From the sequence record OR525698.1: a DNA stretch of 64,000 nt. One strand, given 5' to 3'. How positions within the stretch are numbered: the stretch's first letter is position 1; each line of letters opens with the position of its first letter. The DNA comes from Escherichia phage vB-Eco-KMB43. The notes under the pieces were generated by a model, which saw only the letters and a list, made by a program, of their open reading frames with translations, had not been told where the DNA came from and made no database searches. The position numbers and the translations under genes were made by a program. This document shows, in pieces, positions 1,334 through 54,136 of this stretch.

Positions 1334-1369
1334 TTTGTATACTGTATTTATTGAGTGAGGCTATTCGCT

Positions 1370-2854
1370 ATGCAAGATATTAAAATTCACTTTCTGAACT
1401 ATTCCCATGTTCAAATTGAATGTAGCGATTCAATTTTATTAGAAATGCGAGATTATTTTAGTTTTGAAGTCGAGGGAGCGCGGTTTCAAAAAAGATTTAA
1501 GTATGGTGGATGGGATGGGCGTATTCGTCTTTTAGACTACAACGGAAAGTTGCCTATCGGCCTAACTAAAACCGTGGGAATCTTCGCTAAAAATATGGGC
1601 TATAGCGTATGGGTAGATCCTCGCTTATTCGAAAAAGAACAAGTTACAGAAGAAGAAATTACAAAATGGTGTAATGACTTAGAATTATATTCCGGTGCTA
1701 ACAGGATCACCCCGCACTGGTATCAATCAAAGGCTGTCTTTGAAGGTATCCATCATAAACGCCGTATGTTAGTTTTGCCTACGTCCGCTGGTAAATCTGC
1801 GATTGCTTGTATGTTGTCTCGCTGGTACTTAGAGAACTACGAAGGGAAAGTGCTGATCATCGTTCCTACCACGTCGCTAGTGCTGCAAATGCGTGATGAC
1901 TTTGTTGATTATCGCCAGTTTCCTTATGAAGCAATTCATACTATCATGAGCGGTACTAGTAAACACGTAGGTGATCGCCTGATCGTTGTTAGTACGTGGC
2001 AATCAGCATGTAAACAGCCTCGTGAGTGGTTCCAACAATTCGGGATGGTTATTGTTGACGAATGTCACAAAGCCACTGCTAAAAACCTGCTAAACATCGT
2101 TACTGATATGGATCATTGCCAATTTAAGATCGGTATGACTGGTTCCCCTCGTGACGGGAAAGCTAACATGATGCAGTATGTCGGGCTTTTCGGTGATATT
2201 TCTAAGATCGTGAGTATTGACCGCCTGATGGAAGAAGGGCAGGTGACAAAACTGAAAATTAACTGTCTTTTCCTTCGTTATACCGATGAGGAATGTAGCG
2301 CGGTTAAGGGTAGAGAATATGCGGAAGAGATCAAGTATATTACGTCTAACCCACGACGAAATAAGTTTGCTTGTAATTTGGCGCTAAAACTCGCTAAGAA
2401 GGGCGAAAACGTATTCCTTATGTTCCGCAATACTAAGCACGGAAAACTTATGTATGACGCGTTACAGAAGGTACACGACAAGGTTTATTATATTGACGGT
2501 GGAGTTAAGACAGAAGAACGTGATGAATTTAAGAAATTAGCGGAAGGGGAAACCGGGATCATTTGCGTTGCATCCTATGGTGTGTTCTCTACTGGTGTTT
2601 CAATTAAGAATTTGCACCATGTTATTTTCGGTCATCCAGTGAAGGAATCAACTATCGTTCGTCAGAGTATCGGTCGTGCATTGCGTAAACATGGTTCTAA
2701 GGATATTGCAACGGTCTGGGATCTTATAGATCATCTGGCGGTGAAGACAAAGAGCAAGAATGCTAAGAAACAGTTTAGTCACCTTAATTATGCTCTTAAA
2801 CACGCGCTTTTGAGGATACAGCTTTACAATACCGATAAATTTGAGTATGCTTAA
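1370..2854 (+). CDS. uvsW: UvsW RNA-DNA/DNA helicase (SF2), C-terminus altered by 55 bp tandem duplication
   Basis: Strong similarity to T4 UvsW (MQDIKIHF..., Walker A LPTSAGKS, DECH box); late promoter TATAAATA upstream; stop codon created at duplication junction. Confidence 0.9.
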   Translation: MQDIKIHFLNYSHVQIECSDSILLEMRDYFSFEVEGARFQKRFKYGGWDGRIRLLDYNGKLPIGLTKTVGIFAKNMGYSVWVDPRLFEKEQVTEEEITKWCNDLELYSGANRITPHWYQSKAVFEGIHHKRRMLVLPTSAGKSAIACMLSRWYLENYEGKVLIIVPTTSLVLQMRDDFVDYRQFPYEAIHTIMSGTSKHVGDRLIVVSTWQSACKQPREWFQQFGMVIVDECHKATAKNLLNIVTDMDHCQFKIGMTGSPRDGKANMMQYVGLFGDISKIVSIDRLMEEGQVTKLKINCLFLRYTDEECSAVKGREYAEEIKYITSNPRRNKFACNLALKLAKKGENVFLMFRNTKHGKLMYDALQKVHDKVYYIDGGVKTEERDEFKKLAEGETGIICVASYGVFSTGVSIKNLHHVIFGHPVKESTIVRQSIGRALRKHGSKDIATVWDLIDHLAVKTKSKNAKKQFSHLNYALKHALLRIQLYNTDKFEYA

Positions 2855-2904
2855 ACACGCGCTTTTGAGGATACAGCTTTACAATACCGATAAATTTGAG
2901 TATG
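2795..2904 (+). repeat. perfect 55 bp direct tandem duplication (2 copies) at uvsW 3' end
   Basis: 2795-2849 identical to 2850-2904; junction creates GCT TAA stop. Confidence 0.95.
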
Positions 2905-4318: not shown

Positions 4319-4948
4319 TCAAAGAATTTTAAGGAAACTGGATAGACCTGATAATGAATATACACCAGATTCCCCGCATTCGCACTTGATCGGTACTGCC
4401 AGCGTGATTTGATTTCTTGTTAGCTCGTCGATCACTTCTTCCACTTTATCCGTGGTAAGCATATCCAGCACACGGTCAAAGTCCTGTGCGTTCAGGTCGT
4501 CTATATTGAATTGCTGATCGCCGATCACGATATATTCGATACATGCAATTACCATCTGCATAATATCAACATCTTCTGTAAATTTAGGTTGACGAAACTT
4601 GATTTTTACTTGTCCTAAGTCTAGAATATATGGTTCAACTTCTGGTATCTGTGTGCGTGAAACATCAAGAGAATATACTTTCTCTTTATTGCATACACCA
4701 CACACCCAAGTAGCATCAATTTTCATCTTATTGAGGCTGTGACACCATAAGAGAAGAAAAATATATTCTGCTTCGCATTTCTCTAGCTCTAATGCATTGA
4801 TCCCCGTACATTCATGTATGATCTCTATAACAACCTCTGACAGCTTGCCAGTCTCTTTTGCTGCTACCAGTTTTTGAAATTCGCCGAAGGTGAAAGCACG
4901 GGCGTGTATCAACTTTTCGCCTAATTGGATCTTGAAAAAGTATTGCAT
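4319..4948 (-). CDS. 26: baseplate hub protein gp26
   Basis: 209 aa ORF at T4 gene 26 position and size, divergent from gene 51. Confidence 0.7.
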   Translation of the reverse strand: MQYFFKIQLGEKLIHARAFTFGEFQKLVAAKETGKLSEVVIEIIHECTGINALELEKCEAEYIFLLLWCHSLNKMKIDATWVCGVCNKEKVYSLDVSRTQIPEVEPYILDLGQVKIKFRQPKFTEDVDIMQMVIACIEYIVIGDQQFNIDDLNAQDFDRVLDMLTTDKVEEVIDELTRNQITLAVPIKCECGESGVYSLSGLSSFLKIL

Positions 4949-4990
4949 AATAAAACACCCTTTATAAACACATAGAATTATTTAGTATTT

Positions 4991-4998
4991 TATAAATA
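4991..4998 (+). promoter_or_regulatory. T4-type late promoter TATAAATA (gene 51)
   Basis: Exact TATAAATA ~21 nt upstream of gene 51 start. Confidence 0.6.
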
Positions 4999-5018
4999 CC
5001 CGAAAGGGGGATTATACC

Positions 5019-8582: not shown

Positions 8583-9640
8583 TGAAAATTAGTGTTATCA
8601 ATGATGCCGTTGATAGCTTTAAAGCGGGGGTTAAAACCTCCGCTGGTTTTACCTCAAAAAATAAAGGGAAAACATTAACCGCTCAATTCCCCGCTGAACG
8701 TGCTAGCGGTAATGATGCTAGCGGTTATTATATCAACGACTTATATAATAATGGTCTGTTATTCACTGCATACGATTACACCTCTCGTACTACTGGATCG
8801 CTGCGTGATTTCAGGAAAAAGAAAAATGTTGCTAGCGGTTTTGGTGGTAGCGTTAATATCGCTGGTTTTGATTTAAATTTGGGTGGGAGAAATGCTGCAT
8901 TTGACCGAGAGGCAATTGCTAATATTCTTCTTCCTCGTAGTCAATCTGACGTTGACGCTGCCAGCCATAAGTTTAATGATGTTGGTGAATCTGTTATTTC
9001 TCGCGGCGGTGGTACTTTAGGCGGTGCTCTTTCTAATATGGCATCTACTGCCGTTTTTGGTGGTATCGAAAGTATTACTGGTGGATACCTTGCCGATCAC
9101 GGTGAACAGATTTATAATACTGCGCGAAGCATGTATGCGGGTGCTGATGCACGAACTAAAAACTACGTATGGCATCTAACCCCACGTAGTATTGAAGACC
9201 TTCGCAATATTCTGATCATATACGAAACGTTTTTAGAATTGTCTTATGGTTCTAGTGGCATTTCCAGCACCGCAAAAGAATTAAAAGCGGAAGTTGATGC
9301 GTGGTATAAAAATACACTATTGAGAAAATCCACCCCAGAGGAAGCGAAGAGAAATGATACTCTGTTTGAAGGGATCACCGATTTTCTATCAAACGTAATT
9401 ACTGTATCTAACCCGACAATATGGATGATCTCTAACTTCGGCAAGCGTACATCGTTTGAAGGGCGTAGCGATGCATTTGGTCCCGCTCAGATCTCAAGTG
9501 TACGTCTGGACAAGTCGCCTGATGGTAAGTTTAATGGCCTTGCTATTTCTCCTAACTTGCCGAGTACCTTTGTTCTGGAAGTATCATTTAGAGAGATCTT
9601 GACACTTTCCCGTGGTACTATATTTGGGAGTGCGGCATAA
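8582..9640 (+). CDS. 48: baseplate tail tube cap gp48
   Basis: 352 aa ORF at conserved position, start overlaps upstream stop. Confidence 0.8.
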   Translation: MKISVINDAVDSFKAGVKTSAGFTSKNKGKTLTAQFPAERASGNDASGYYINDLYNNGLLFTAYDYTSRTTGSLRDFRKKKNVASGFGGSVNIAGFDLNLGGRNAAFDREAIANILLPRSQSDVDAASHKFNDVGESVISRGGGTLGGALSNMASTAVFGGIESITGGYLADHGEQIYNTARSMYAGADARTKNYVWHLTPRSIEDLRNILIIYETFLELSYGSSGISSTAKELKAEVDAWYKNTLLRKSTPEEAKRNDTLFEGITDFLSNVITVSNPTIWMISNFGKRTSFEGRSDAFGPAQISSVRLDKSPDGKFNGLAISPNLPSTFVLEVSFREILTLSRGTIFGSAA

Positions 9641-10089
9641 TGTTTGATTTAAATGACTTTAACGAACAAGCCGCTAACCTTGACTTTCAGCGATCGAACT
9701 TATTCAGCGTGGCATTTGCCACCACTCCAAGTAATAAGACACAAGCGATCCTAGAAAGTATGGGTGGTGCGGTATATGATATTATACCAAATGCATTAAA
9801 TGACTATTTCGGGATTACTCGTGGTGATTATACTGACGCATTAACAAATCTTGCTGTGCAGGGTGTTAGGCGTGCTGTTGATTCATCTGGTGTCAAAAAG
9901 TATCTTTTAGGTGCAATGTCATCCCGCGTAGTTCAATCTCTTCTGGGGCAATTTGATGTTGGTACATATGCGCTTGACTGGTTCAATCTGGCATATAAGA
10001 CAAGCGGTCTTCTGGTGTATGCTGTTAAGGTTCCAGAAAACAGATTGAATTATGAAATGGACCGTAACCACAATGCGCCAAACATTCGA
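9640..10089 (+). CDS. 54: baseplate tail tube initiator gp54, N-terminal segment (residues 1-150)
   Basis: Collinear with T4 gp54 up to ...PENRLNYEMDRNHNAPNIR; reading frame then diverges and stops at 10170. Confidence 0.8.
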
Positions 10090-10466
10090 TTAATGGTAAG
10101 TGTCTGGAAGAAAAAGATGGTCTTAAGCTGTCTGATGTGTATATTTGTACAGAGACTGAATTTACTTTAAATGGTAAAGTCTTTAAATTTAAAAATCCAA
10201 TGTATACTTCTGACCCCATTATCGATGACGCTGATTTCTTGAGTCATCATTATCACGATCCTAGTGTAGACTTCCATGATTTCCCAGCTTTTATTATGGA
10301 TTGGGCTACAGGATTAAGAAAAACTATTGCACTGGATACACCGGAAGGTACTATCTATGGTGGAATTAACATATTGGATCGCCTATCATGAATGACGCAT
10401 TAACATCATTTCGCGGGATGCGCAAGGAAGCGGAAGAAAACCCGATTGATAAACTTAACAAATTAG
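10090..10466 (+). other. intervening sequence interrupting gene 54 (candidate group I intron or other excised element)
   Basis: Removing 377 nt (or 380 nt, 10087-10466) joins NIR to INGRDFDPLVLSFRMD in frame, matching the contiguous T4 gp54 sequence; 3' end is G. Confidence 0.6.
10137..10391 (+). CDS. open reading frame inside the gene 54 intervening sequence (~100 codons open, function unknown)
   Basis: Frame open from 10083 to TGA at 10391 in AT-rich DNA; weak RBS; same frame as gp54 C-terminal segment. Confidence 0.3.
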   Translation: MYICTETEFTLNGKVFKFKNPMYTSDPIIDDADFLSHHYHDPSVDFHDFPAFIMDWATGLRKTIALDTPEGTIYGGINILDRLS

Positions 10467-10949
10467 ATAAACGGACGTGATTTCGATCCGCTTGTATTGA
10501 GCTTTAGAATGGACTCTAGCGCATCAAACTATCGAGCAATGCAGGATTGGGTTAACTCAGTAGAAGACCCCGTTACAGGGCTTCGTGCGCTTCCTGTTGA
10601 CGTTGAAGCAGATATTCAGGTTAACTTACATAACCGAATGGGAGTTCCTCACACGATCATGATGTTTAATGGTTGTGTTCCTGTTGGTGTGAGTGCACCG
10701 GAATTAACCTATGAAAATAACAACGAAATAACAACATTCGATGTTACTTTCGCATATCGTTCTATGCAAACTGGTGCTGTAGGAGAGCAAGCCGCGCGAG
10801 AATGGATTGAGGATAAGGCAATAAACGCAATAACAAACACTTTCGGCAATAATTTACTTGATAGTGGGTTATCTGCTGCTGGTAATGCTTTATCGCGTCT
10901 AAATGGCGTTGGTGGGCGTGTGGTGAATACTGTCACTAACTGGTTCTGA
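10467..10949 (+). CDS. 54: baseplate tail tube initiator gp54, C-terminal segment
   Basis: INGRDFDPLVLSFRMDSSASNYRAMQDWVNSV... collinear with T4 gp54 C-terminal half; no good own start or RBS. Confidence 0.8.
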   Translation: MNGRDFDPLVLSFRMDSSASNYRAMQDWVNSVEDPVTGLRALPVDVEADIQVNLHNRMGVPHTIMMFNGCVPVGVSAPELTYENNNEITTFDVTFAYRSMQTGAVGEQAAREWIEDKAINAITNTFGNNLLDSGLSAAGNALSRLNGVGGRVVNTVTNWF

Positions 10950-10984: not shown

Positions 10985-11466
10985 TTTGCTAAATCATTGC
11001 AATATTTTAGTGCCTTAGTTTGAAATTCTGCGCTGTTAAGTTCTTCATAACGGTCATAATCACCGTTTAATGCTGCTTTTCTTGCTTCTTGCTCTATCTG
11101 CATGTCAGACATGATAATACAGCGATCCCGTGCTTTCATCTTCTCAAGTTGTATAAACTCTTCTTTCTGTTTGCGCAATTCTTCTTGACGCTTCTTTTCT
11201 TCTCGTGCTTTCTCTTCCCGCGCTTCTTTGATTGCATCCTTGAACATCTGCGTTTGTGGTGCTAAACCAACTTTAACGCGACCCACGTCTCGACGTTCCA
11301 TTTTAGAAATAAAGCATGATTCGATCTGATCATCACTTGCATATGCTGCTTTACATTCACGAAGCAAGAAAACCGGATCTGATTTAGCATTCATCATAGC
11401 TTCCATGTTAGCACAACCAGTAAGCATGAATGCAGACGCAAGACCAATTAGTTTAATCATTTTCAT
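10981..11466 (-). CDS. putative lipoprotein (signal peptide plus lipobox LTGC)
   Basis: N-terminus MKMIKLIGLASAFMLTGC, charged coiled-coil-like body. Confidence 0.6.
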   Translation of the reverse strand: MKMIKLIGLASAFMLTGCANMEAMMNAKSDPVFLLRECKAAYASDDQIESCFISKMERRDVGRVKVGLAPQTQMFKDAIKEAREEKAREEKKRQEELRKQKEEFIQLEKMKARDRCIIMSDMQIEQEARKAALNGDYDRYEELNSAEFQTKALKYCNDLAK

Positions 11467-12287
11467 TTAGTCACCTCACCGAAAATTGTAAATTGTCTAC
11501 GATTCTCATCGCCGAAAGATTCTACTACGTCGTTTACCTTGACGCAAGTCCCGCGCGGTAAAATTACTTCACATTCGCAAGGATTCCATGCAATTGACCC
11601 AACAACAAAACCTTTATGATCTTTTACGTCAATTACCCACGATACATTACAAGAATGTTGCATCTTTCCGGTCATCGATTCATATCGATTCTCACAATAA
11701 AGGCTAGTGCTGTTTGATAGCCATCCTCCAAAGATGATCGGTGTCATGCTGGTCGATACAAAGTTTTTAAAGGTAAACTCCTTATCTTCAATGATGCGCT
11801 CTATTGTCTGAATGTCAAGATGTTGACCGCGATAAAGAGTACCGTTTAACTTTTCGGTTTTATCCATGACACAATCCATCAAATCGACAATCTCTGATAT
11901 CTCGTCGGTCATGTCTTCTTCCCCTAAGAGAGCACCATTTACCCATTCGTATTGTTCAGATACATAATCACAGATTGCATTATATTCTGCTGGGGTTATG
12001 TTGTTATGTTTGTAATGTTTGAATACATTATCTCCAAAGTCTTCGGAATGTACTTCATACATCACATTAATGATTTTCTTGACAAATCCATAATCTTGTG
12101 TCTCGCGCTCAAGGAAGCGGATAACCTTCACATAATCATCAAAGTTAATCTGATCGCTGATCATCTCAGTGATCATGTAACCATTAATCCCCTCAATGTC
12201 ATATGTTTCAATATAATTGTCCATACGTTCCATCATTGATTCGCGTGATTCTTCCGAAAGACGAAAATCCTGTAATTTCTTGAACAT
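11463..12287 (-). CDS. Alt-like ADP-ribosyltransferase domain protein (paralog of alt)
   Basis: R-S-E type motifs LYRG, FKNFVSTS, ECEVILPRG shared with the adjacent Alt. Confidence 0.7.
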   Translation of the reverse strand: MFKKLQDFRLSEESRESMMERMDNYIETYDIEGINGYMITEMISDQINFDDYVKVIRFLERETQDYGFVKKIINVMYEVHSEDFGDNVFKHYKHNNITPAEYNAICDYVSEQYEWVNGALLGEEDMTDEISEIVDLMDCVMDKTEKLNGTLYRGQHLDIQTIERIIEDKEFTFKNFVSTSMTPIIFGGWLSNSTSLYCENRYESMTGKMQHSCNVSWVIDVKDHKGFVVGSIAWNPCECEVILPRGTCVKVNDVVESFGDENRRQFTIFGEVTK

Positions 12288-12366: not shown

Positions 12367-14418
12367 TTACATTTTAAATTTATCTGGCATTGCGTCTACA
12401 GATACCAGATCAGCGATAAGCTGACGTAGAGTTGCCTTATCTGCTTTCTTACGTTCGGTTTTAGCTTCGCTAATGAAGCTGGAGAAAGACAGGTCAGAAG
12501 CAGGTTTAATAACACCTTCACGGATGAATGCATCACCGTCTGCGATCATCTCGCCAGATTCTTGTAATGCTGCCAGTTCATTTTTGTTCATAATATGTGC
12601 CTCAATGTAATAAGTTTCTTGTGAATCCGTCGATGCCGTAGCACGAGTTACCGTATCAAAGGATAACACAACACCGCGAGGAAGTAAAATCTCGCATTCT
12701 TTGTAAGCAAATGCTTTGTTACCTACTGGCAACACAGGGATGTTTTCCGCGCCAGCAATGGAGAAAGCAACATTAGCGCCACCTTCACCGCGAGAGCCAG
12801 CCATAGAATCAACACCAGCAACGGCACTAGCCACGTTTGCATTCCAGCCGCCAAAAATGTTAGGTGCAAGGGAAGTGCTCACATAGTTTTTAAAGTAAAA
12901 CGCTTTTTGCTTACGTGCAGTTTCCCACATTTGAGTCCGGAAGTCCATACCACGATACAGAATAGTACCCGGATCAAGTTTAACGCCATAGTTGGAGAAG
13001 GCATTATCCAGTGCATCGCACATCTTGACCAATTCTTCTGGATCTGCGATGCCTTCAAACTCTTCCAGCTTACGATCAGTTAGGAAGTTGTTCATATTGA
13101 TGTATGCTGCATCGGCATATTCGCTCAATACAAAACCTTCCGCGCCCGGCAGATCAAGATCAATATCTGCCATCATTTCACCCATGTTGCTAGCAATTGC
13201 TTCAAACATACCGGAAGCAACATTACGTAGGGCATCGGTTTTAATCTGGGTGATATGACTACGCAGCATTTCAGCTTTTACATCTGCTGGCATAGACTGG
13301 TCTACTCGATCCATTGCCAGGGCGGTGATCTTGTTTTCGAATACTTCCTCGCTCATGATTTCTTTTAAGCGTTTGATTGATGCTGCGATAACTTCCGCAG
13401 ACAACGGATCATATTGATCCTGAACTTTTACCAGTTCGCTTACTGCGTATTTTGCATCTGCTTCGCTTTCAAAAATAGTACGCATGAAACCATAGCGAGT
13501 GATAATATCACTTGTCCAGTCATTCAGAGAACGGGCGGTTGAACGTTCTAATGCTTGACGATCAATCAGAGTATTAAACTGTTTCTTAGGTTCGGCTTCG
13601 GTGATATCTTCTTCCGGTTTAAGATTAATTTTTTCTGGATGATTCACATAGTCGCTGTTATAGGTCGCTTGAGTTTTCAGCATTTCTTCTTTAGTCAAAC
13701 GAGATTTAGCCGCTACGCGTTGTTCTGCTTCCGCGTTTCGTTCTTCTTCTGACACAAGACTAGCCGCATACGCCTCATCTTTAGTCAGAGATTCACCAGT
13801 AGCCTTAGATACCCAGCGATCACCTAAATCACTTTCTACTTTAGTGAACAAGGATTCATCAAGTTTAATCCCTTTAATCTTATCAATCGCCATCCCGCGA
13901 CGCTTGACAACAACTAAAGCGATCTTTTTGCTGGTCATTACTTCCTGCTGGAATACTTCAAACTTCGGTGTACGACGCACCAAACGCTCTATAACGCGCT
14001 TAACCAGTTCGGTCTTACCTTTCATGCGGGATACGTTAAAACGGAACATAACAGCGTCTAATTGCGCTTTACGGGCTGTTTCCATAACCACATCAAAAGC
14101 ACTTGCCATAACTGCAATCGGGTTATCTCCTAGACCATTTTTAAGCTGTACAATACGACCGCTTTTGTTCATTTCGCACAGTACAACATGTGCGGTCTTG
14201 TCACCCATACGAATGATTTTAGGTGTTTTGTTGGTGAAGTTACAAAGACGGACAATCACATCTTTATCGCGTGTCTGTACTGCAAAAAGCTGTTTAGGAT
14301 TCTGCTTAGGCTTTAAGCACTGTACCGGAGCAATACTGCCAAAGTTTTCTTCCTCTTCCGTCAACAGCCATTTCTCGAAAGATTCAATCATTAGATCGTC
14401 GATTTCTAAGTTAAACAT
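12367..14418 (-). CDS. alt: Alt ADP-ribosyltransferase (head-packaged)
   Basis: 683 aa, T4 Alt size; motifs ILYRG, FKNYVSTS, YKECEILLPRG. Confidence 0.85.
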   Translation of the reverse strand: MFNLEIDDLMIESFEKWLLTEEEENFGSIAPVQCLKPKQNPKQLFAVQTRDKDVIVRLCNFTNKTPKIIRMGDKTAHVVLCEMNKSGRIVQLKNGLGDNPIAVMASAFDVVMETARKAQLDAVMFRFNVSRMKGKTELVKRVIERLVRRTPKFEVFQQEVMTSKKIALVVVKRRGMAIDKIKGIKLDESLFTKVESDLGDRWVSKATGESLTKDEAYAASLVSEEERNAEAEQRVAAKSRLTKEEMLKTQATYNSDYVNHPEKINLKPEEDITEAEPKKQFNTLIDRQALERSTARSLNDWTSDIITRYGFMRTIFESEADAKYAVSELVKVQDQYDPLSAEVIAASIKRLKEIMSEEVFENKITALAMDRVDQSMPADVKAEMLRSHITQIKTDALRNVASGMFEAIASNMGEMMADIDLDLPGAEGFVLSEYADAAYINMNNFLTDRKLEEFEGIADPEELVKMCDALDNAFSNYGVKLDPGTILYRGMDFRTQMWETARKQKAFYFKNYVSTSLAPNIFGGWNANVASAVAGVDSMAGSRGEGGANVAFSIAGAENIPVLPVGNKAFAYKECEILLPRGVVLSFDTVTRATASTDSQETYYIEAHIMNKNELAALQESGEMIADGDAFIREGVIKPASDLSFSSFISEAKTERKKADKATLRQLIADLVSVDAMPDKFKM

Positions 14419-19375: not shown

Positions 19376-19707
19376 CGCCTTTTTATAAAATAATTTTCGA
19401 TATCTTTATGATGTTTTTCTCGTGCTTGGTCTGCCTCGGCTGGCGATACGTTGGAAGCGATAATCTTCACTACTGTTGCACCTTTTTCGGTGTCCGACAC
19501 CCAATGATTATGGAAACCGCTATTATTAAACACTTGATAAGAAAATGATTTAATGCTAGGGAAATTATATGTGTAATAGCGTACCTTTAATTCTGAATCT
19601 ATGTATAGATAGATCACCGCACCTAGATAGACCGTCTCACTCGTTCCATCAACTAACAGTAGAGTATTTCGCAATTCTTCTAAATTGTCTTTTGTAAGAA
19701 AAATCAT
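19372..19707 (-). CDS. HxHW-motif small protein family member
   Basis: FHNHW ... IIASNVSPAEADQAREKHH. Confidence 0.5.
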   Translation of the reverse strand: MIFLTKDNLEELRNTLLLVDGTSETVYLGAVIYLYIDSELKVRYYTYNFPSIKSFSYQVFNNSGFHNHWVSDTEKGATVVKIIASNVSPAEADQAREKHHKDIENYFIKRR

Positions 19708-19721
19708 AGTATAATCCTCAA

Positions 19722-20045
19722 TTAAACCAAATTAACTTTGGTGTTGTGGTGTTTTTCTCGTGCTTCGTCCGCTTCTTCCGGTGTCACGTTACGAGCGACT
19801 ACAATAACACTTGCTGCCTCTCCGTGATGAGAGATCTCTACCCAATGGTTATGATTTGTGAATCCGTGTTTTATTGCGTAAGCGAACGGCTTGGACGTCC
19901 AGTAGTTACTATAATATCGTACATTTAGATCGCTATCAATGTACAAATATGTGCTGTCGTTTACATTGCCACTAACAACAAAAACAAGACAATTGCGAAG
20001 ATCTGGCAATATTTTGTCTGTCAATTTTATAATGTGACTGTTCAT
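19722..20045 (-). CDS. HxHW-motif small protein family member
   Basis: NHNHW ... VVARNVTPEEADEAREKHH; ATG at 20045. Confidence 0.5.
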   Translation of the reverse strand: MNSHIIKLTDKILPDLRNCLVFVVSGNVNDSTYLYIDSDLNVRYYSNYWTSKPFAYAIKHGFTNHNHWVEISHHGEAASVIVVARNVTPEEADEAREKHHNTKVNLV

Positions 20046-22932: not shown

Positions 22933-23406
22933 TTACTCCTTATTTTCGCGCTCGTACTTTTCGAAATAAAATTCTACTGGCTGGTCGTGGATTGACAGCA
23001 AGCCAAAGCGTTTAGCCGCTCGCAATCCCATATTGCGCTGAATGTACTTCTGGAAGTTCTCGCGTATACACTTACGCCAGGATTCTAAGCCCATGCAGCT
23101 TTTATAAAGATTGCATTGCACACATGCCGGATTCATGTTATCAAGTATATCATGCTCCGGTTTATGCATTCCTACAACCTTATACTTCCACGATCCATCA
23201 TCATTACGGACAATTCGTCCATTTTCATCATAGACTACCTTTGAGCGTCGCAATACTGGTTTGATGTGGTCTGCGTGCCAGCGATCCCCTAGTTCCTCGC
23301 CACAATAGGCACAACGTCCACCATATTTCATTTTCAGGATCTGGCGTTGCTCTTTCTTTGACAATTTTTTAGGTTTAGGGGCTTTCGCCCCTTCATTATC
23401 ACACAT
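22933..23406 (-). CDS. HNH endonuclease (free-standing, homing-endonuclease-like)
   Basis: CAYCGE...WHADHIKP...N...CVQCNLYK pattern typical of the HNH motif. Confidence 0.7.
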   Translation of the reverse strand: MCDNEGAKAPKPKKLSKKEQRQILKMKYGGRCAYCGEELGDRWHADHIKPVLRRSKVVYDENGRIVRNDDGSWKYKVVGMHKPEHDILDNMNPACVQCNLYKSCMGLESWRKCIRENFQKYIQRNMGLRAAKRFGLLSIHDQPVEFYFEKYERENKE

Positions 23407-24901
23407 CGAATACCTCTTTTACTGTATTTGCAGTGGTCTTGTCGTAGCGAATACGTTTGATGATTGGGAGAAATAAAGAGAACTCCGGTTCATCTTCTTT
23501 ACGTGATTTGCTGCGAATGTACCCGTTGCATGTCATCTCAATGACTTTTCCAATCAGGTTATGACGGTCAGCCCATAACATTTCTCGGTCGAGTTCATTT
23601 CGACGATCGAACGGAATTACACGTTCAGTACCATCATCACCTTTTTCGGTTGTAGTGTCGGTTAATCCCGATCCGGTGTTAGTCATCATTCGTCCGCACG
23701 CACTACGGACAGTAAAACCGCCTACCTTATTGGGGTCTTTACTATGCGGATATACATCAACAATTTCCGCGTCGAAGTCAATCACTTCTTTAAATTTAAC
23801 CTGATCTTTACTACGGCGATCTTCAAATACACCATGTAAATTTTTAAGGATAATACCTTCTAAGCCCATGTTGACATAACGATGATATACTTCGCGAGCT
23901 TCATCGATATTGTTAACTACAGTGTTTTCTATGATCTGAACACGAGGATCGTTAAGTTCTTCAACAATCTGTTTTAGTTCTTCGAATCGATCTTTATATT
24001 GCTTCGTTGCTTTCTCGTTTCCGTAATACACATCACGGTCGATAACATCCCAGACAGTGTAAACAATACATTGGGCTTCTTCTTTTGGAATAGTTCCTTT
24101 AAGTGATTTGTTGAGGATACCATTTCCGGTCTGACGATCTGCAACAACGGATTCTTTCACTGCTTCCGCTACTGGCGTTAATGGCATTTCCTCTTCTTCA
24201 AATATCCATGACAGAGTACCATCATAAACGCTTTCAACGAAGTTCTGCGCTGGTGTTTGCGAAAGGGTAGGCATATATACCAATTCGCCATCTAGAACAA
24301 TTCCACGGCCTCGTAGACGCTCTAAAACCGCAAACAAATCATCAAGCCCTTGATAGGTATTACCTGAGCGGGTATAGATTGCTAATGTTTCCCCGTCAAT
24401 ATCAGCCATACCACGAGCGCCATCGCTTTTAAGTTGTGCATACGCCGGATACTTGATATTAGCAATAGTCTTATCAGAACATGACGATGCAAGGTGGCAC
24501 GGTTGCTGGGGGATCAGTTTCTTCCATACCTTGTTTGCAGTGGTAGCGGAACAGCCGCATTCCAGATCACGATTCAGGACCATCATTGCAACTTTAGCAT
24601 CATCCTCTGACAAGCAAGTCAGAGTATCGGTAACTAGCTGTAATGCTGCATTACCAGTTACTTGACGCGTGGCAAGTTTATTTTTAAAGACCTGTAATGC
24701 ACCGGATAAAGACAATACAGACGAATAGCGAGACGGTTTATCGTATTTCTTTACGCCAAACGTAACCTGTTTGCAATATGCCAGATAAAAGCATTCTTTC
24801 AGCGTTTCATTGCTCGCGGATTCTTTCAGAATCTTTTCTTTCAGCGATGTTTTGTCTGTTGCTGCAAGCTGATTAATGATATTAAGAATTGACATTTTCA
24901 C
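23399..24901 (-). CDS. 30: ATP-dependent DNA ligase gp30
   Basis: 500 aa, adenylation motif KSDGARG, T4 ligase-like length and position. Confidence 0.9.
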   Translation of the reverse strand: MKMSILNIINQLAATDKTSLKEKILKESASNETLKECFYLAYCKQVTFGVKKYDKPSRYSSVLSLSGALQVFKNKLATRQVTGNAALQLVTDTLTCLSEDDAKVAMMVLNRDLECGCSATTANKVWKKLIPQQPCHLASSCSDKTIANIKYPAYAQLKSDGARGMADIDGETLAIYTRSGNTYQGLDDLFAVLERLRGRGIVLDGELVYMPTLSQTPAQNFVESVYDGTLSWIFEEEEMPLTPVAEAVKESVVADRQTGNGILNKSLKGTIPKEEAQCIVYTVWDVIDRDVYYGNEKATKQYKDRFEELKQIVEELNDPRVQIIENTVVNNIDEAREVYHRYVNMGLEGIILKNLHGVFEDRRSKDQVKFKEVIDFDAEIVDVYPHSKDPNKVGGFTVRSACGRMMTNTGSGLTDTTTEKGDDGTERVIPFDRRNELDREMLWADRHNLIGKVIEMTCNGYIRSKSRKEDEPEFSLFLPIIKRIRYDKTTANTVKEVFDV

Positions 24902-25361
24902 CTCGTTTTGTTAAACGTTCACGAATATCATTGAGGATACTACAAAATTCCGATTCAGTCAATATAGTCTTTAACGGATCAGTTCCACCTATGCTATGAC
25001 GTAATTTCTTATTTCCGGTAGCAAGTAATGCTTTACAAAATTCTGGGTTATTCCGTGCCATCGTAACAAATGCCAGATGTACCAGTCTGTAATAATGCTC
25101 ACTCATTCGATGAATCGGGCGACCCTGAAAATATAACATGTGATTCTCAATCTTTTCAGTTCTTCCGGTTCTTTTTGCTTTGCCACCGTGCATCAAAAAG
25201 ATTTCTCTTTGTCTCTGAGGGTTCTTAAATCTTAGCCCCTGTAAAAATCCTTCTGTGCTGTTAATATCGCAGCCAAATAAACGGAATGGTCTTTTATTGA
25301 AATTACTCAATTCACCCGATGGATAAGGTCCACCCGCATAGATATCAATTTCAGAAGTCAT
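24882..25361 (-). CDS. NADAR (YbiA/DUF1768)-like domain protein
   Basis: Motifs YAGGPYP.GELSNF, TEGFLQGLRF, KALLATG resembling the NADAR family. Confidence 0.5.
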   Translation of the reverse strand: MTSEIDIYAGGPYPSGELSNFNKRPFRLFGCDINSTEGFLQGLRFKNPQRQREIFLMHGGKAKRTGRTEKIENHMLYFQGRPIHRMSEHYYRLVHLAFVTMARNNPEFCKALLATGNKKLRHSIGGTDPLKTILTESEFCSILNDIRERLTKRGENVNS

Positions 25362-25598
25362 TGAAACTAATCTCGCTAATCAGAGAGAACGGATCATAAT
25401 CGTCATTAGGAATATCGATAGTAATCGAATGAGGATTTACCCATACACCAAACTGGTCTTCTTCGGTGAATACTTCGGTATGGATTTCGTGGATGTTTAC
25501 ATTCATAGTTTTCATAATAAAATTTCCTTAATAATCAATAACTTACAAAATCATATAGCCAAAATATAGGCGGGATTATTTCCCGCCGTTTAAAATCA

Positions 25599-33826: not shown

Positions 33827-34674
33827 CAGCTATTTGACAATCCATCGCAAGCATCAATGTAAGCACCTACAAAACTTTCTATAAAAAGTGCTCCGACTTG
33901 AGGAACTATCGCATTGCCATAACCGCGCAATCGTCCCATTGTTGAGGATACCCCATCAGCCAACAAGGGAATCGTGGGTTCAACAATTCGTTTTTTCCCG
34001 TCTCTGCATAGATACTCTGTTCCACTGTCCCAAAACCGTAATACATCTTCACTTGTTCTGATAAATTTCCCGGCGCTAGTGATTTCCTCCCCGTTGCAAG
34101 TCTCGCTTCCATTCTCCGTTGCATTGCTTCCGGCGATCTTGCTGATATATTCGTTACAGTAGGTGTTTGCCAACTCGTTAATAGCCCCGAAGAAAAGTCT
34201 GTCCCGCTTGTGCGGCGCACCGACGATATCACATGATAATACCGCAGCCCCGACACTGTAACCTTCTCTTTCCAATTCCTCGTGAAGATCATCCAACCAC
34301 CCCGTTTCGATAGCTTTTGCAACCTGTTCCCCAAAGAGCATTGGAGGTTTGCACGCTGACACGAGTTTAAGAAATGTCGGTGCAAGGTGTCTTTCGTCGA
34401 ACTTTCCTTTTTGCTTTCCGGCTCTTGAAAATGGTTGACATGGTGGCGATCCGGTCCATAGCCTTGTTGTTTCTGGTACTCCAGCGAGTTGCAATGCTCT
34501 TGACCACCCCCCAATCCCCGCGAAGAAGTGACATTGTGTAAATCCTTCCAGATCTCTAGGGGTGACTTCTGTAATTGATCTTTCATCGACATACCCATAA
34601 GGAATTAATTTGTTTGCTATAAGTTCACGTAACCAGTTAGCCGCGCCTTTATCCCACTCATTGTAATAATTCAT
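33823..34674 (-). CDS. DNA (cytosine-5)-methyltransferase, compact (283 aa)
   Basis: Motif I FFAGIGG, motif IV GSPPCQPFSRAG, C-terminal GNAIVPQV; GC-rich versus flanks; identical PeSL copies on both sides. Confidence 0.8.
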   Translation of the reverse strand: MNYYNEWDKGAANWLRELIANKLIPYGYVDERSITEVTPRDLEGFTQCHFFAGIGGWSRALQLAGVPETTRLWTGSPPCQPFSRAGKQKGKFDERHLAPTFLKLVSACKPPMLFGEQVAKAIETGWLDDLHEELEREGYSVGAAVLSCDIVGAPHKRDRLFFGAINELANTYCNEYISKIAGSNATENGSETCNGEEITSAGKFIRTSEDVLRFWDSGTEYLCRDGKKRIVEPTIPLLADGVSSTMGRLRGYGNAIVPQVGALFIESFVGAYIDACDGLSNSC

Positions 34675-34695
34675 TCTTACAATTCACCTCACATT

Positions 34696-48897: not shown

Positions 48898-50388
48898 ATG
48901 GCAGATTTGAAACATGGATCTACTGTAGGCGGATCTCCCATTTGGACGCAAGGAAACTTGACGATCCAGCCAGCGGGTGATCAGCTTTTCTATAAAGGTC
49001 ATAAAATCTATACCGCTTTTGATAAACCTTCGGCTGCCGATTTTGATGCTGTTAGTGCATCTGAGGGTGGTACATTTCAGAAACTGGTCCATTTTGAGGA
49101 AGGTTTAAGCGTAGGTAGCGCATCCGGTGGAGAAACCAAAAAGAACGGGATCTTTAAAGGAAAGAGCGATGCGGCTAACTTTGATGGTGTAAGTTGGGGT
49201 TTGCATTCGTGGAAATCTATTGGTTTTGTTAATGCTCGTGATGATGTTATCATGGCTTATATTGACACTACCACAGGTGATTTTAAAACTAAAGGGACCA
49301 TCGAAGGGACAACCATTAAAGACACTGGTCAACGCGTCTATAGTCCTGTTAATAAGCCGACAAACAATGATTTGGATTTGGTGTCTCGTCGCGGTGATAC
49401 TCTCACGGGAACGTATAATTTAAACACGGCTACATTTAAACTTGATGTTAATTCGAAAATACTTGCGCGGGATCGTGGTTTCATTGCTTTCGATTCTAAT
49501 GCCATTTATTTTGGAAATAGTCTTGATACTTTGGCATTCAGTAGCAAAAACGAGCCGACAATTTCTGTTAATGGCAAGGCAGGTAGATTCTACCACACCA
49601 ACAATAAACCGACTAAAGCCGATGTTGGACTAGGTAATGTCACCAATGATGCACAGGTTAAACGTGCTGGTGATATTATGGAAGGTAACTTGCAAGCGCC
49701 TAGAATGTTGGCGACAAACGATCCTGCTGGTCCTAATGAATTGGTTCGTTTGAGCTACTTTGAGAAAAAATCAATGGTAGCAAATCCAACAATCATTGGA
49801 AACGTTGATTGGAACACTCTTATTAATCGCGGTATCTATCGTGTGGAAAATGCTGGATCAGGTACTAATAAACCGTCTGATAGCTATTATAACGGCGTTT
49901 TGATGGTATATCGCCCAGAAGATGCGGTCGGTACTCGTCGAATTGTTCAGGTATACTATCCTGAATCTATTGATCATCCGATGTGCTGGCGTTCTTGTTC
50001 TAATGAATCATGGACCGCATGGAACTATGTAGATCACCGTAAATTGGCTGATGCTCGCTATGTTAATGTGACTGGCGATACCATGAGAGGTGCTTTGACA
50101 GTTCCCGCTGCAAACGGCGTTCGTACCGCAAAAGCTAACTATAATGGTGATAATTGCTACGCTGGACTTAATAGCTTAGATGGCACAGCAATGATTCATC
50201 GTGTTAGTGATATTAAAGCGCACGAGAAACTAGGCATCACACATGATTCTAAAATTATTTTCGTTAAATCACGCAACAATACTCAGGACACCGATACATT
50301 TGAATTATACCACGAAGGACACAAACCAACTCCTGATGATGTTGGCGCTGTTCCGCTTAATGCGGTAATTGATTTTGGTACTTTCTAA
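48898..50388 (+). CDS. 36: long tail fibre distal connector gp36 (extended, 496 aa)
   Basis: N-terminus MADLKHGSTVGGSPIW like T4 gp36; late promoter TATAAATA at 48857. Confidence 0.85.
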   Translation: MADLKHGSTVGGSPIWTQGNLTIQPAGDQLFYKGHKIYTAFDKPSAADFDAVSASEGGTFQKLVHFEEGLSVGSASGGETKKNGIFKGKSDAANFDGVSWGLHSWKSIGFVNARDDVIMAYIDTTTGDFKTKGTIEGTTIKDTGQRVYSPVNKPTNNDLDLVSRRGDTLTGTYNLNTATFKLDVNSKILARDRGFIAFDSNAIYFGNSLDTLAFSSKNEPTISVNGKAGRFYHTNNKPTKADVGLGNVTNDAQVKRAGDIMEGNLQAPRMLATNDPAGPNELVRLSYFEKKSMVANPTIIGNVDWNTLINRGIYRVENAGSGTNKPSDSYYNGVLMVYRPEDAVGTRRIVQVYYPESIDHPMCWRSCSNESWTAWNYVDHRKLADARYVNVTGDTMRGALTVPAANGVRTAKANYNGDNCYAGLNSLDGTAMIHRVSDIKAHEKLGITHDSKIIFVKSRNNTQDTDTFELYHEGHKPTPDDVGAVPLNAVIDFGTF

Positions 50389-50392
50389 TTCT

Positions 50393-50416
50393 AGCGGGGA
50401 TTATCCCCGCTTTTCT
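50393..50416 (+). terminator. terminator after gene 36
   Basis: Hairpin GCGGGGA-TTA-TCCCCGC followed by TTTTCT. Confidence 0.6.
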
Positions 50417-50455
50417 AAATAATATTATTCTAACAACCGTTAAGGATTTTATAAA

Positions 50456-53254
50456 ATGGCAGATTTACAGAGAATCCAATTTAAAAGAACAAGTACGGCA
50501 GGTCGCAAGCCGGATGCGAATATTCTAACTCCGGGTGAACTTGCTATTAACCTAGCGGATCGAGAACTATATACAAAAGATGACAGCAATAATGTAATTA
50601 CTTTGGGACACTTTCGCGGTGAGTTGCCATCTGATGCAAATTTAGATAATTATGGACCTACTGGTAAATTTACTGGCGTTTGGTCTAAATCAACTTCAAC
50701 AAATGCGCAGCCAGCAAATAAATTCCCAGAAGAGAATGCTGTAGGTGTATTAGAAGTATTTGTGGCTGGTCAATTTGCTGGCACTCAGCGTTATACTGTT
50801 CGGTCTGGTAACGTTTATATCCGTTCTTTGTCTGCGAAATGGAATGGCGTAGATGGTCCATGGGGTCCGTGGCGCAATATTCAAACTGGCACACGTCCAC
50901 TATCAACTACACTAGACTTGAATACTTTAGGTGATGCTTCTCATTTTGGGTTATGGCGAAATAGTTTAAGTTCCATTGCATCATTTTCTCGAAATTACCC
51001 AGAAGAAGGTGGTCTCGCGCAAGGTCTTTTAGAAATTTATGAAGGTGGTAACTATTCTCGCACGCAACGTTATACTACCCGAATGGGTGTTGTATATGTT
51101 CGTTGTCTTGCTGGTGCATGGGATCCAGAAGCTCCGAATTGGGGACCGTGGCAACAAGTAGGTATGGTTACTCCAAACACATTCTATGACGGGGATCTTA
51201 ATAATTTTCGTTCTCCTGGCTTGTATAACATTTTAGGGACTGATGCCGTTATTAACCGTCCAGTTGCAGAAGGTGTTCCGGTTGAGATGACCGGATTGCT
51301 TGAGGTTAAACAGCGTGCTTCCGGTGCCGCTATTTTCCAACGTTTCACTACCGCAGGAACGGGTGCAACTACGCGATCTCGCGTGTTTGAACGTGCGATG
51401 ACAAATAACATCTGGGGAAATTGGTACGAAGTATATACGTCCTATTCTATGCCGATCACTCTGGGTATGGGTGGTGTTAAATCTCAATTAGCGGAGCTAG
51501 ACTGGCAAACCTTTGATTTTGTCCCTGGTAGTATGTTTAGTGTTCCTTTGAACAAAATAAAGAATATGCCAGCAAATATGGATTGGGGGACGATTGACGG
51601 AAACTTGGTTATGTTTTCTGTCGGTCCTAGCGAACATACCGGAACGGGTCGAACTGTTCAAGTGTGGCGCGGTACTGTATCTCAGGCGAACTATCGTTAT
51701 TTCGTTGTTCGTATCGCTGGTAATCCAGGAAGTAGGACTAATACTTGTCGTCGTGTTGTTGTGGAAGATGGTCGCCACACATGGACAGCGCAACAAGATT
51801 TTAATGGTGCAGTTAACTTCGGTGCTCCTACCAATTTTAACTCTACTGTTAACCTTAATAACACTACCACATTTAAAACAGAAGTTAAATTCCGCTCATC
51901 TAATGCATTCCGTATGTATGGCGGTAATTTTGGCACAATTTTCCGTAATGATGGTGAAAGTCTTTATATTCTTTCCACCGACGAAAATGATCAAGATGGA
52001 AACTTTAATACAAATAGACCTTTCCGCTATCAATTAAAAACTGGCGATGTTACTTTGGGTGGCACTAGCGGTGCTAACGCTTTAGTATTAAAAGGCGGTT
52101 CTCTTGCTGCTACCTTTAGCGGTGATGTTAATTTAAGTAAAGGTACGCTGACGTTTGAAGCGGGTGGTAAGCAATCACGCGATTATTTCCGGTTTAATCA
52201 TTGGGGTGATAGCAATAACGCTCGTGATAACATTATTCAGTTAGAAGATAGTAAAGGCGCTCATTTTTCCACTGAACGTACTTTAGCGACGGGCGCAATT
52301 AAAACTAAGTTCTTTGGTGAAGTTGAATCCGATGGTCGATTGACTATTAAACGTCCTGGTGATGCTATTGTATTATCAACAACTGCTGGTAATGCTTTGC
52401 ATATTCGCGGTGATATAGACGGGAGTGGTAACTGGTATATTGGCAAGGGTGGTGCTGATAATTCGCTAGCATTTTATAGCTATGCTACTCAGGCGGCAGT
52501 ACATATAACAAACAATGGTGAGATTGCGTTAAACCCGCAAAATACCGCAATGGTTAACGTTAACCGCGACCGTGTACACATTAACGGTTCTGGATGGATT
52601 GCTAGACAACCGGGTGATTGGGGCAACCAATGGCGAGTAGAAGCTCCATTATTCGTTGATCATGGTTATGTTGGTCAAGATAGTTATTATCCTATTCTTA
52701 AAGCAAGAAGCGTTATAACCAATCAAGGATATAGCACCGCTGTTGACTTTGGTATGCGTCGTATTCCATCACAGTGGGGGCAAGCAATCATTCGCGTCGG
52801 ATCCACGGAGGCTTCTCCTGATGCTGGACACCCACAAGCTATATTTGAATTCCATCATGATGGATTCTTTTATACACCAGGAAATGGTAGCTTTAGCGAT
52901 GTGTATATTCGTTCTGACTCCCGTCTCAAGATTAATAAAGAAGAATTAGAATATGGAGCGGTCGAAAAAGTTTGCCGACTGAAAGTTTATACATACGATA
53001 AGGTTAAGTCTATTAAAGATCGTAGTGTTATTAAACGTGAAGTTGGTATTATTGCTCAGGATCTTGAAAAAGAATTACCGGAAGCTGTGTCTAAAGTTGA
53101 AGTTGATGGTTCTGATGTTCTGACAATTTCTAACTCGGCAGTGAATGCTCTTTTAATTAAGGCTATTCAGGAAATGAGTGAAGAAATTAAAGAATTGAAA
53201 ACGCCTCTCTTTACTAAAATTGCTCGCAAAATTAGTAAATATTTTAAATTCTAA
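50456..53254 (+). CDS. 37: long tail fibre distal subunit gp37 with C-terminal intramolecular-chaperone-like domain
   Basis: N-terminus MADLQRIQFKRTSTAGRKP like T4 gp37; C-terminal SDSRLKINKEELEYG...IIAQDLEKELPEAV resembles auto-cleaving chaperone domains. Confidence 0.9.
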   Translation: MADLQRIQFKRTSTAGRKPDANILTPGELAINLADRELYTKDDSNNVITLGHFRGELPSDANLDNYGPTGKFTGVWSKSTSTNAQPANKFPEENAVGVLEVFVAGQFAGTQRYTVRSGNVYIRSLSAKWNGVDGPWGPWRNIQTGTRPLSTTLDLNTLGDASHFGLWRNSLSSIASFSRNYPEEGGLAQGLLEIYEGGNYSRTQRYTTRMGVVYVRCLAGAWDPEAPNWGPWQQVGMVTPNTFYDGDLNNFRSPGLYNILGTDAVINRPVAEGVPVEMTGLLEVKQRASGAAIFQRFTTAGTGATTRSRVFERAMTNNIWGNWYEVYTSYSMPITLGMGGVKSQLAELDWQTFDFVPGSMFSVPLNKIKNMPANMDWGTIDGNLVMFSVGPSEHTGTGRTVQVWRGTVSQANYRYFVVRIAGNPGSRTNTCRRVVVEDGRHTWTAQQDFNGAVNFGAPTNFNSTVNLNNTTTFKTEVKFRSSNAFRMYGGNFGTIFRNDGESLYILSTDENDQDGNFNTNRPFRYQLKTGDVTLGGTSGANALVLKGGSLAATFSGDVNLSKGTLTFEAGGKQSRDYFRFNHWGDSNNARDNIIQLEDSKGAHFSTERTLATGAIKTKFFGEVESDGRLTIKRPGDAIVLSTTAGNALHIRGDIDGSGNWYIGKGGADNSLAFYSYATQAAVHITNNGEIALNPQNTAMVNVNRDRVHINGSGWIARQPGDWGNQWRVEAPLFVDHGYVGQDSYYPILKARSVITNQGYSTAVDFGMRRIPSQWGQAIIRVGSTEASPDAGHPQAIFEFHHDGFFYTPGNGSFSDVYIRSDSRLKINKEELEYGAVEKVCRLKVYTYDKVKSIKDRSVIKREVGIIAQDLEKELPEAVSKVEVDGSDVLTISNSAVNALLIKAIQEMSEEIKELKTPLFTKIARKISKYFKF

Positions 53255-53260
53255 CAACAA

Positions 53261-53278
53261 GGGGGCATTGCCCCCTTT
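53261..53278 (+). terminator. hairpin after gene 37 (terminator-like)
   Basis: GGGGGC-ATT-GCCCCC followed by TTTGG. Confidence 0.4.
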
Positions 53279-53290
53279 GGAGTATAAATT

Positions 53291-54073
53291 ATGGCAGTAG
53301 TTGGTGTTCCTGGTTGGATTGGAAGTTCAGCCGCAAATGAAACAGGACAAAGATGGATGAGTCAAGCGGCTGGTCAATTAAGATTGGGTGTTCCTTGCTG
53401 GATGATTCAATTTGCAGGTCGCTCGCGAGAAATTATTCATACACTTGGTGCAGACCATAACTTCAACGGTCAGTGGTTCCGTGATAGATGCTTTGAAGCA
53501 GGTAGTACACCTATAGTGTTTAATATCACTGGAGATTTAGTATCATATTCTAAAGATGTTCCTTTATTCTTTATGTACGGAGATACACCGAATGAATATG
53601 TTCAGTTGAATATACATGGCGTAACGATGTATGGTCGTGGCGGGAATGGCGGTAGCAATGGTCCTGGATCAGCCGGGGGGCATTGTATTCAAAATGATAT
53701 TGGTGGGAGACTAAGAATTAATAATGGTGGAGCTATTGCAGGTGGCGGTGGCGGTGGCGGTGGTGGGTATTATTCTCCTTTTTCACAAATGAGATTAACC
53801 TTTGGCGGTGGCGGTGGGCGTCCGTTTGGTGCGCCGGGCGGATCTATTGATATGCAATCAGGCGCAACTGCTGGTACTCTTTATGCGCCCGGTTCGGGGT
53901 CCGTGAACGGTATCTATAATGGTGGAAGCGGTGGTGAGGTAGGCGCCGCAGGAGGTAGATGTAATATTCGTGGTCAAGGATCTGAATATAATGGCGGCGA
54001 TTCTGGATATGCTGTTATAGGGTCTTCTCCAACGTGGCAAAATCGCGGAGCTATTTACGGACCGGCTGTTTAG
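53291..54073 (+). CDS. 38: tail fibre adhesin gp38 (T2-type, glycine-rich motifs)
   Basis: [11 protein letters not shown]...[19 protein letters not shown] and poly-Gly blocks characteristic of T2/T6-type gp38. Confidence 0.85.
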
Positions 54074-54136
54074 ACGCAATTATAAAAAGAATTAAGGAAA
54101 ACTCCCACGGAAGGGAACTACTAAGGAGAAACGGCT

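Follow-up and report, generated by a model that had tools for sequence, protein, structure and literature searches.

The closest characterized counterpart of the gene described here is gene 30.3 of phage T4. The gene in question lies on the minus strand at 24882..25361 of a 64,000-nucleotide (nt) stretch of Escherichia phage vB-Eco-KMB43 (record OR525698.1), hereafter called the window, and encodes a protein of 159 amino acids (aa) from ATG to stop. Johannesman et al. (Nat Commun 2025) mapped the resistance of T-even phages against the DarTG1 defence system to T4 gene 30.3, which was renamed adfN, for anti-DarT factor NADAR (PMC11825919). The T4 protein strips ADP-ribose from DarT1-modified DNA in vitro, and adfN is both necessary and sufficient for DarTG1 resistance in T-even infection; the T-even phages used in these tests were Bas35-Bas47, T2, T4, T6 and RB69 (PMC11825919). 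The mutations E36A and K43A weaken AdfN, as does loss of the C-terminal helix, of which the frameshift allele of the DarTG1-sensitive phage RB69 is a natural case (PMC11825919). AdfN neither binds DarT1 nor counters DarTG2 (PMC11825919). Hydrolysis of ADP-ribosylated guanine (G-ADPr) in vitro has been reported independently (PMC11125620; PMC12945103), and a transposon screen showed adfN to be conditionally essential on DarTG1 hosts (HIDEN-SEQ preprint). On K-12 the gene is dispensable (PMC11825919; HIDEN-SEQ preprint). The same preprint described Tk.4 (AdfM), a macrodomain protein, as an anti-DarTG2 factor.

Several other proteins serve as points of reference. In the papers cited here NADAR activity is described on ADP-ribosylated nucleic-acid bases, namely guanine and, for some families, cytosine, and a last-strand His, in place of the Glu of YbiA and the Asp of DarG1, sets phage NADARs apart (PMC11125620, PMC11543638, PMC12945103). 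DarG1 is the BC4488-type NADAR of DarTG1, represented by the G. lovleyi (8BAT) and E. coli C7 proteins. T4 AdfN is unable to replace DarG1 in uninfected cells, and E. coli YbiA gives no protection from DarT1 in cells (PMC11125620). AdfN-Bas32 from a T5-like phage and AdfN-Bas60 from the Vequintavirinae are also guanine-adduct-specific NADARs that allow escape from DarT toxins, but they belong to other NADAR branches and are active without T-even infection (PMC11825919). AdfA and AdfM likewise help phages to evade DarT toxins; AdfA binds DarT1 without being an enzyme, and AdfM is a macrodomain against DarTG2.

By its sequence the window belongs to Krischvirus, the RB49-like relatives of T4; 59 Krischvirus genomes from E. 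coli and Shigella match the segment carrying the ligase gene, 30.3 and gene 31 at 98-100% identity. The encoded protein is 100% identical to gp30.3 of RB49, the record of which names the gene '30.3', and the ORF (open reading frame) is the Krischvirus orthologue of T4 gene 30.3/adfN. It matches the Pfam family PF08010 (Phage_30_3, 'Bacteriophage protein GP30.3') far beyond chance, with an E-value of 1.2e-38 and 132.5 bits (cut-off 36) over profile positions 2-138 of 138, and PHROG 652 with an E-value of 2.5e-45. The gene, its family and the family function are already known, and tblastn located the protein in 1509 phage records. Most of the newer Krischvirus records label it 'hypothetical protein', and these entries can be relabelled as AdfN/phage NADAR orthologue. 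Our work followed up a sequence-only reading of the window, which had reported a 159 aa NADAR-like ORF next to a DNA ligase gene; its coordinates proved exact, and the motifs that it quoted are found at residues 15-21 (SGELSNF), 35-45 (STEGFLQGLRF) and 111-116 (ALLATG).

With T4 gp30.3, the prototype phage NADAR, the window protein shares the PF08010 family and the genome position between the ligase gene 30 and the co-chaperonin gene 31. Both proteins are bare NADAR cores without extensions, of 152 aa in T4 and 159 aa here, and they share the catalytic Glu, the phage-type His and the C-terminal helix. Unlike in T4, no internal 30.3' ORF is annotated here. Identity to DarG1 is 11%, the N-terminal fold extension of DarG1 is missing from the window protein, and the last-strand catalytic Asp is His. 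DarG1 also has a partner DarT1 gene, whereas 30.3 in the window is flanked by a 54 aa ORF and the ligase gene with no ADP-ribosyltransferase adjacent. E. coli YbiA (2B3W) and the Phytophthora nicotianae NADAR (8BAU) are 21-22% identical to the window protein and carry Glu in the last strand where it has His.

The general NADAR profile does not by itself recognize the protein. At 15.5 bits the match to PF08719 (DUF1768) stayed below the threshold of 35.1 (E-value 0.021), and the NCBIfam model for anti-phage NADARs gave an E-value of 0.023, far under its cut-off. Searches of the PDB with profiles of the gp30.3 family reached only YbiA, with an E-value of 0.12 when the profile was built from 12 sequences and of 0.0014 with 74 sequences. 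The alignment underlying the latter value pairs the SNF motif and the E...K motif. Sequence by itself barely ties the gp30.3 family to NADAR. The AlphaFold2 (AF2) model of the protein has a mean local confidence (pLDDT) of 94.3 and a predicted template modeling score (pTM) of 0.89, and a structure search with this model identified the NADAR fold unambiguously. Since the PF08719 match is sub-threshold, the NADAR assignment rests on this fold search and on published work. The homology claimed by the sequence-only reading is right on these grounds, while the profile comparison that it had named as its refuting test was survived only narrowly, the general Pfam profile falling short and the structure search being clear. 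A weak and unexpected sequence similarity of residues 45-151 to the C-terminal part of DltA (PDB 7vhv, E-value 3.8e-4; NCBIfam PRK04813, E-value 0.24) was set aside as chance, as the predicted fold does not support it.

To describe the family statistically an exhaustive search was needed, because a word-indexed homologue search gave only 13 matches. The exhaustive search returned 973 cluster representatives at E ≤ 1e-3, and the top 150 of these provided 162 domains for a family alignment. Against T4 gp30.3, BLASTP gave 38% identity over 151 aa (E-value 2e-30). Residue E37 of the window protein aligns with E36 of T4, which corresponds to E43 of the P. nicotianae enzyme (PnNADAR), and with the Glu of the YbiA motif 'SEHYFQAQKF'; a Glu occupies this position in 158 of the 162 domains. 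Residue H122 aligns with H123 of T4, directly after the strand at 119-121 in the model, and is His in all but two of the domains (160/162). All near-invariant positions, among them the SNF motif, are kept in the window protein: L18-S19-N20, F26, Q41, Q51, G59, A62, R85, L112, G125, T132, L134, T135, E138, F139, L143 and R147. The C-terminal helix is complete (residues 136-157 of the model, at high confidence), and the ORF extends seven residues beyond the T4 end without a frameshift.

The gene is maintained by selection. A metagenomic relative (L010), whose gp30.3 is 69% identical, gave a ratio of nonsynonymous to synonymous substitution rates (dN/dS) of 0.12 for 30.3, with dS near saturation; 30.3 is therefore under purifying selection. 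The 54 aa ORF evolves faster against the same relative (dN/dS 0.47). Gene order is the same in L010, where the counterpart of the 54 aa ORF lies at 4847..5011 and both of the overlaps described below are kept.

In the light of the T4 experiments we consider it likely that the 30.3 product is a NADAR-fold ADP-ribosyl glycohydrolase which counters DarTG1 by the mechanism of T4 AdfN. Upon infection of a DarTG1 host, DarT1 would attach ADP-ribose to the guanine N2 of phage DNA and block its replication. The phage NADAR enzyme, produced from a gene block that also carries the ligase, would then cleave the bond between ribose and guanine, releasing ADP-ribose and restoring a replicable template. In such an active site the distal ribose would be held by E37, with R44 standing in for the usual phosphate-contacting Lys and H122, which ends the last β-strand, filling the site of the YbiA Glu or the DarG1 Asp. 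Substrate, target defence system and phenotype are in this way transferred by homology from T4 AdfN at the identity given above. The suggestion in the sequence-only reading that the protein might counter host toxins that ADP-ribosylate DNA agrees with the experiments on the T4 orthologue and DarTG1 (PMC11825919; HIDEN-SEQ preprint). Its wider wording, DarTG-type systems, is better restricted to DarTG1, since DarTG2 is not countered by T4 AdfN. If the assignment is correct, resistance to E. coli carrying DarTG1 is predicted for RB49-like phages, a group in use in phage collections and therapy cocktails.

Several observations weigh against this assignment. The identity to the characterized T4 protein is just 38%, and T4 AdfN is fully effective only in T-even infection (PMC11825919), a dependence that suggests a phage co-factor. 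T4 genes were searched by tblastn (E ≤ 0.01) in the window and in the RB49 genome, the latter without bases 100001-100699, which are covered by the window. The T4 neighbours 30.1, 30.2 and 30.4 had no homologue in RB49 or the window. If T4 AdfN needs a T-even co-factor, then 30.1, 30.2 and 30.4 are not that co-factor here; the ORF of 54 aa overlapping 30.3 is a candidate, nothing more. A literature search for Krischvirus together with DarTG found no paper linking the two and no experiment on a Krischvirus protein. Mainly for this reason our confidence in the mechanism goes no further than likely. The remaining point is the replacement of the phosphate-contacting Lys by Arg at position 44, which is equivalent to K43 in T4, K95 in C7 DarG1 and K50 in PnNADAR, in each case a Lys seven residues past the Glu. 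This Lys contacts the phosphates of ADP-ribose, while the Glu contacts the distal ribose. In C7 DarG1 the mutant K95R kept G-ADPr hydrolysis in vitro and lost rescue from DarT1 (Schuller et al., PMC11543638).

The Lys-to-Arg change is fixed in Krischvirus and might signify a change in function: the enzyme could be adapted to an ADP-ribosylated substrate or toxin other than E. coli C7 DarT1, or, as the DarG1 K95R result would predict, it could be a weakened allele that leaves these phages sensitive to DarTG1. We regard such a shifted or weakened Krischvirus enzyme as unlikely. Of the 162 aligned domains, 147 have Lys and 11 have Arg at position 44, and those with Arg fall into at least three separate lineages in which Glu and His are retained. 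This recurrence argues for tolerance of Arg at the Lys position. The native Arg may nevertheless affect activity in vivo.

A related idea is that the enzyme mainly targets RNA carrying ADP-ribose, or else guanine adducts of toxins different from DarT1 (pierisin/ScARP-like or YarT-like), in which case the Lys-to-Arg change would reflect the shifted preference. Representatives of all NADAR families, that of T4 included, reportedly remove G-ADPr from RNA as well as DNA (PMC12945103), and specificity in vivo differs among NADARs despite their common activity in vitro (PMC11125620). R44 and its recurrence in separate lineages with E37 and H122 intact would also fit. Against this, no evidence was found that RNA ADP-ribosylation restricts T4-like phages, and DarT1-modified DNA is the simplest transfer from the T4 orthologue. 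We judge this main target improbable; activity of this kind is compatible with the data and would overlap with the DarTG1 reading rather than exclude it.

A role on soluble ADP-ribose derivatives, such as immune signals or by-products of RNA repair, instead of DNA adducts was proposed for phage NADARs on contextual grounds in an earlier comparative survey, which also noted their early expression alongside ADP-ribosyltransferases in T4-like phages (PMC9503650). This was a reasonable prediction in 2022, and the presence of the RNA-repair genes pseT (polynucleotide kinase/phosphatase) and rnlA (RNA ligase 1) on the same strand at 2-5 kb from 30.3 would be in line with it. However, the proposal predates the biochemistry and genetics of the T4 protein on G-ADPr in DNA and on DarTG1, and the papers cited here show no soluble substrate for proteins of the gp30.3 type. 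We give it as little credence as the RNA target.

Still less probable is a role in reversing or editing the phage's own ADP-ribosylation, the other function that had been suggested from the sequence. The two ADP-ribosyltransferases mentioned in that context do occur in the window, on the same strand as 30.3 and ca. 10-13 kb away from it. One is an Alt-like enzyme of 683 aa (12367..14418, minus strand; PF03496, E-value 2.1e-9; annotated alt in RB49). The other is a second, shorter Alt-like enzyme of 274 aa (11463..12287, minus strand; PF03496, E-value 4.3e-16), whose counterpart RB49p183 is annotated as 'similar to C-terminal part of T4 Alt'. RB49 in addition has a modB ADP-ribosyltransferase gene (L007 8917..9420), outside the window. 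The Alt and Mod enzymes of T4 modify arginine side chains in proteins. Processing of such phage-made modifications finds no support in the papers cited here, where NADAR activity is described on ADP-ribosylated nucleic-acid bases (PMC11125620, PMC11543638, PMC12945103). Furthermore, DarTG1 alone accounts for the phenotype of a T4 adfN deletion, the gene being dispensable on K-12, and 30.3 is located in the block of ligase and gene 31 rather than beside the transferases. The Alt-like enzymes are context and have no part in the proposed mechanism. A YbiA-type N-glycosidase acting on intermediates of the riboflavin pathway is hardly credible, the Glu that defines YbiA being His both here and in almost the entire family, with ca. 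22% identity to YbiA and no riboflavin genes in the surroundings.

The DarTG1 assignment can be viewed together with the other anti-DarT genes of the group. T4 Tk.4/AdfM has a 44%-identical macrodomain homologue in RB49 at 50040-50495 (L008 40..495), outside the window, whereas no homologue of T4 AdfA (61.2) was found in RB49 or the window by the search described above. It is likely from these sequence comparisons that the Krischvirus group possesses enzymes that counter DarTG1 as well as DarTG2 and does without the DarT1-binding factor. An AdfM homologue combined with the lack of AdfA in RB49 provides a testable view of the anti-DarT repertoire.

The adjacent ligase gene named by the sequence-only reading is gene 30, encoding an ATP-dependent DNA ligase of 498-500 aa (23399..24901, minus strand; PF01068, E-value 2.8e-22; PHROG 114, E-value 1.4e-141; RB49 annotation). 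It lies directly downstream of 30.3, the 3' end of which extends 14-20 nt into the ligase gene, the exact figure being set by the choice of ligase start codon. In T4 the genes 30.1 and 30.2 separate the two. Directly upstream is the 54 aa ORF (25351..25515, minus strand; PHROG 15277), named '31.-1' in RB49, the stop of which overlaps the start of 30.3 by 11 nt; translational coupling of the two is therefore likely. The encoded polypeptide is acidic and unrelated to T4 30.4, which holds the equivalent position. Further upstream on the same strand follow the gene 31 co-chaperonin homologue, a 31.1-like WYL_2 protein, dCMP deaminase and polynucleotide kinase. In the interval that separates gene 31 from the 54 aa ORF, a GC-rich hairpin with a T-rich run behind it was located by consensus scan only (25569..25587, minus strand). 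It may act as a terminator, or stabilize RNA, on the upstream side of the block 31.-1/30.3/30, but this reading is weak because the number of such sites does not exceed that expected from shuffled sequence; the scan for promoters and terminators around 30.3 as a whole found sites no more numerous than in shuffled sequence. Downstream of the ligase gene, and overlapping its 3' end by 8 nt, is an HNH endonuclease gene (22933..23406, minus strand; PF01844, PHROG 2118), which may be a mobile homing-endonuclease insertion. T4 carries alt.1 and alt at this site.

Length exceeds 200 aa in about 45% of the top gp30.3-family representatives. Among the longer members, fusion partners include a BspA-type leucine-rich repeat domain, calcineurin-like phosphoesterase, thymidine kinase, Lgt, cupin and α/β hydrolase; the longer metagenomic relatives considered were P0019, P0021, P0058, P0061, P0069, P0070, P0075, P0117, P0131, P0135 and P0140. 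As a clue to function the fusions were discarded, the partners being heterogeneous without a consistent hint and some of them possibly arising from gene calling. Tandem gp30.3 domains occur in several relatives, of which at least P0069 and P0117 have lost the catalytic Glu from the second copy.

Some irregularities were seen elsewhere in the window, and the first two are shared by no deposited Krischvirus. A piece of 541 nt that in RB49 and FL04 bridges the gp28/gp29 junction is lacking from its usual location near position 7092, and 386 nt of this piece are found at 10087..10472 inside the tail-tube/baseplate gene 54, which is thereby split into ORFs at 9640..10170 and 10497..10949. The window holds no second copy of the piece. 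None of the 58 Krischvirus records matching the region has the displaced arrangement, and the genes are intact in FL04. A group I intron was considered for the insertion in gene 54 and rejected, as there was no Rfam match and the inserted sequence is a displaced piece of the same genome. The displacement is probably an artefact of assembly or editing, because three essential genes would be broken by it. A perfect tandem duplication of 55 bp (2795..2849 and 2850..2904), which neither RB49 nor FL04 has, puts the very last part of the UvsW helicase gene (uvsW ORF 1355..2854) into another frame and also looks like an artefact. Three stretches of the window had no megablast match to RB49 (50561..54083, 33839..34695 and 19416..20043). 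The largest, 50561..54083, falls at the distal long tail fibre gene of RB49 (151717-154656), which is consistent with replacement of a host-range module between Krischvirus isolates.

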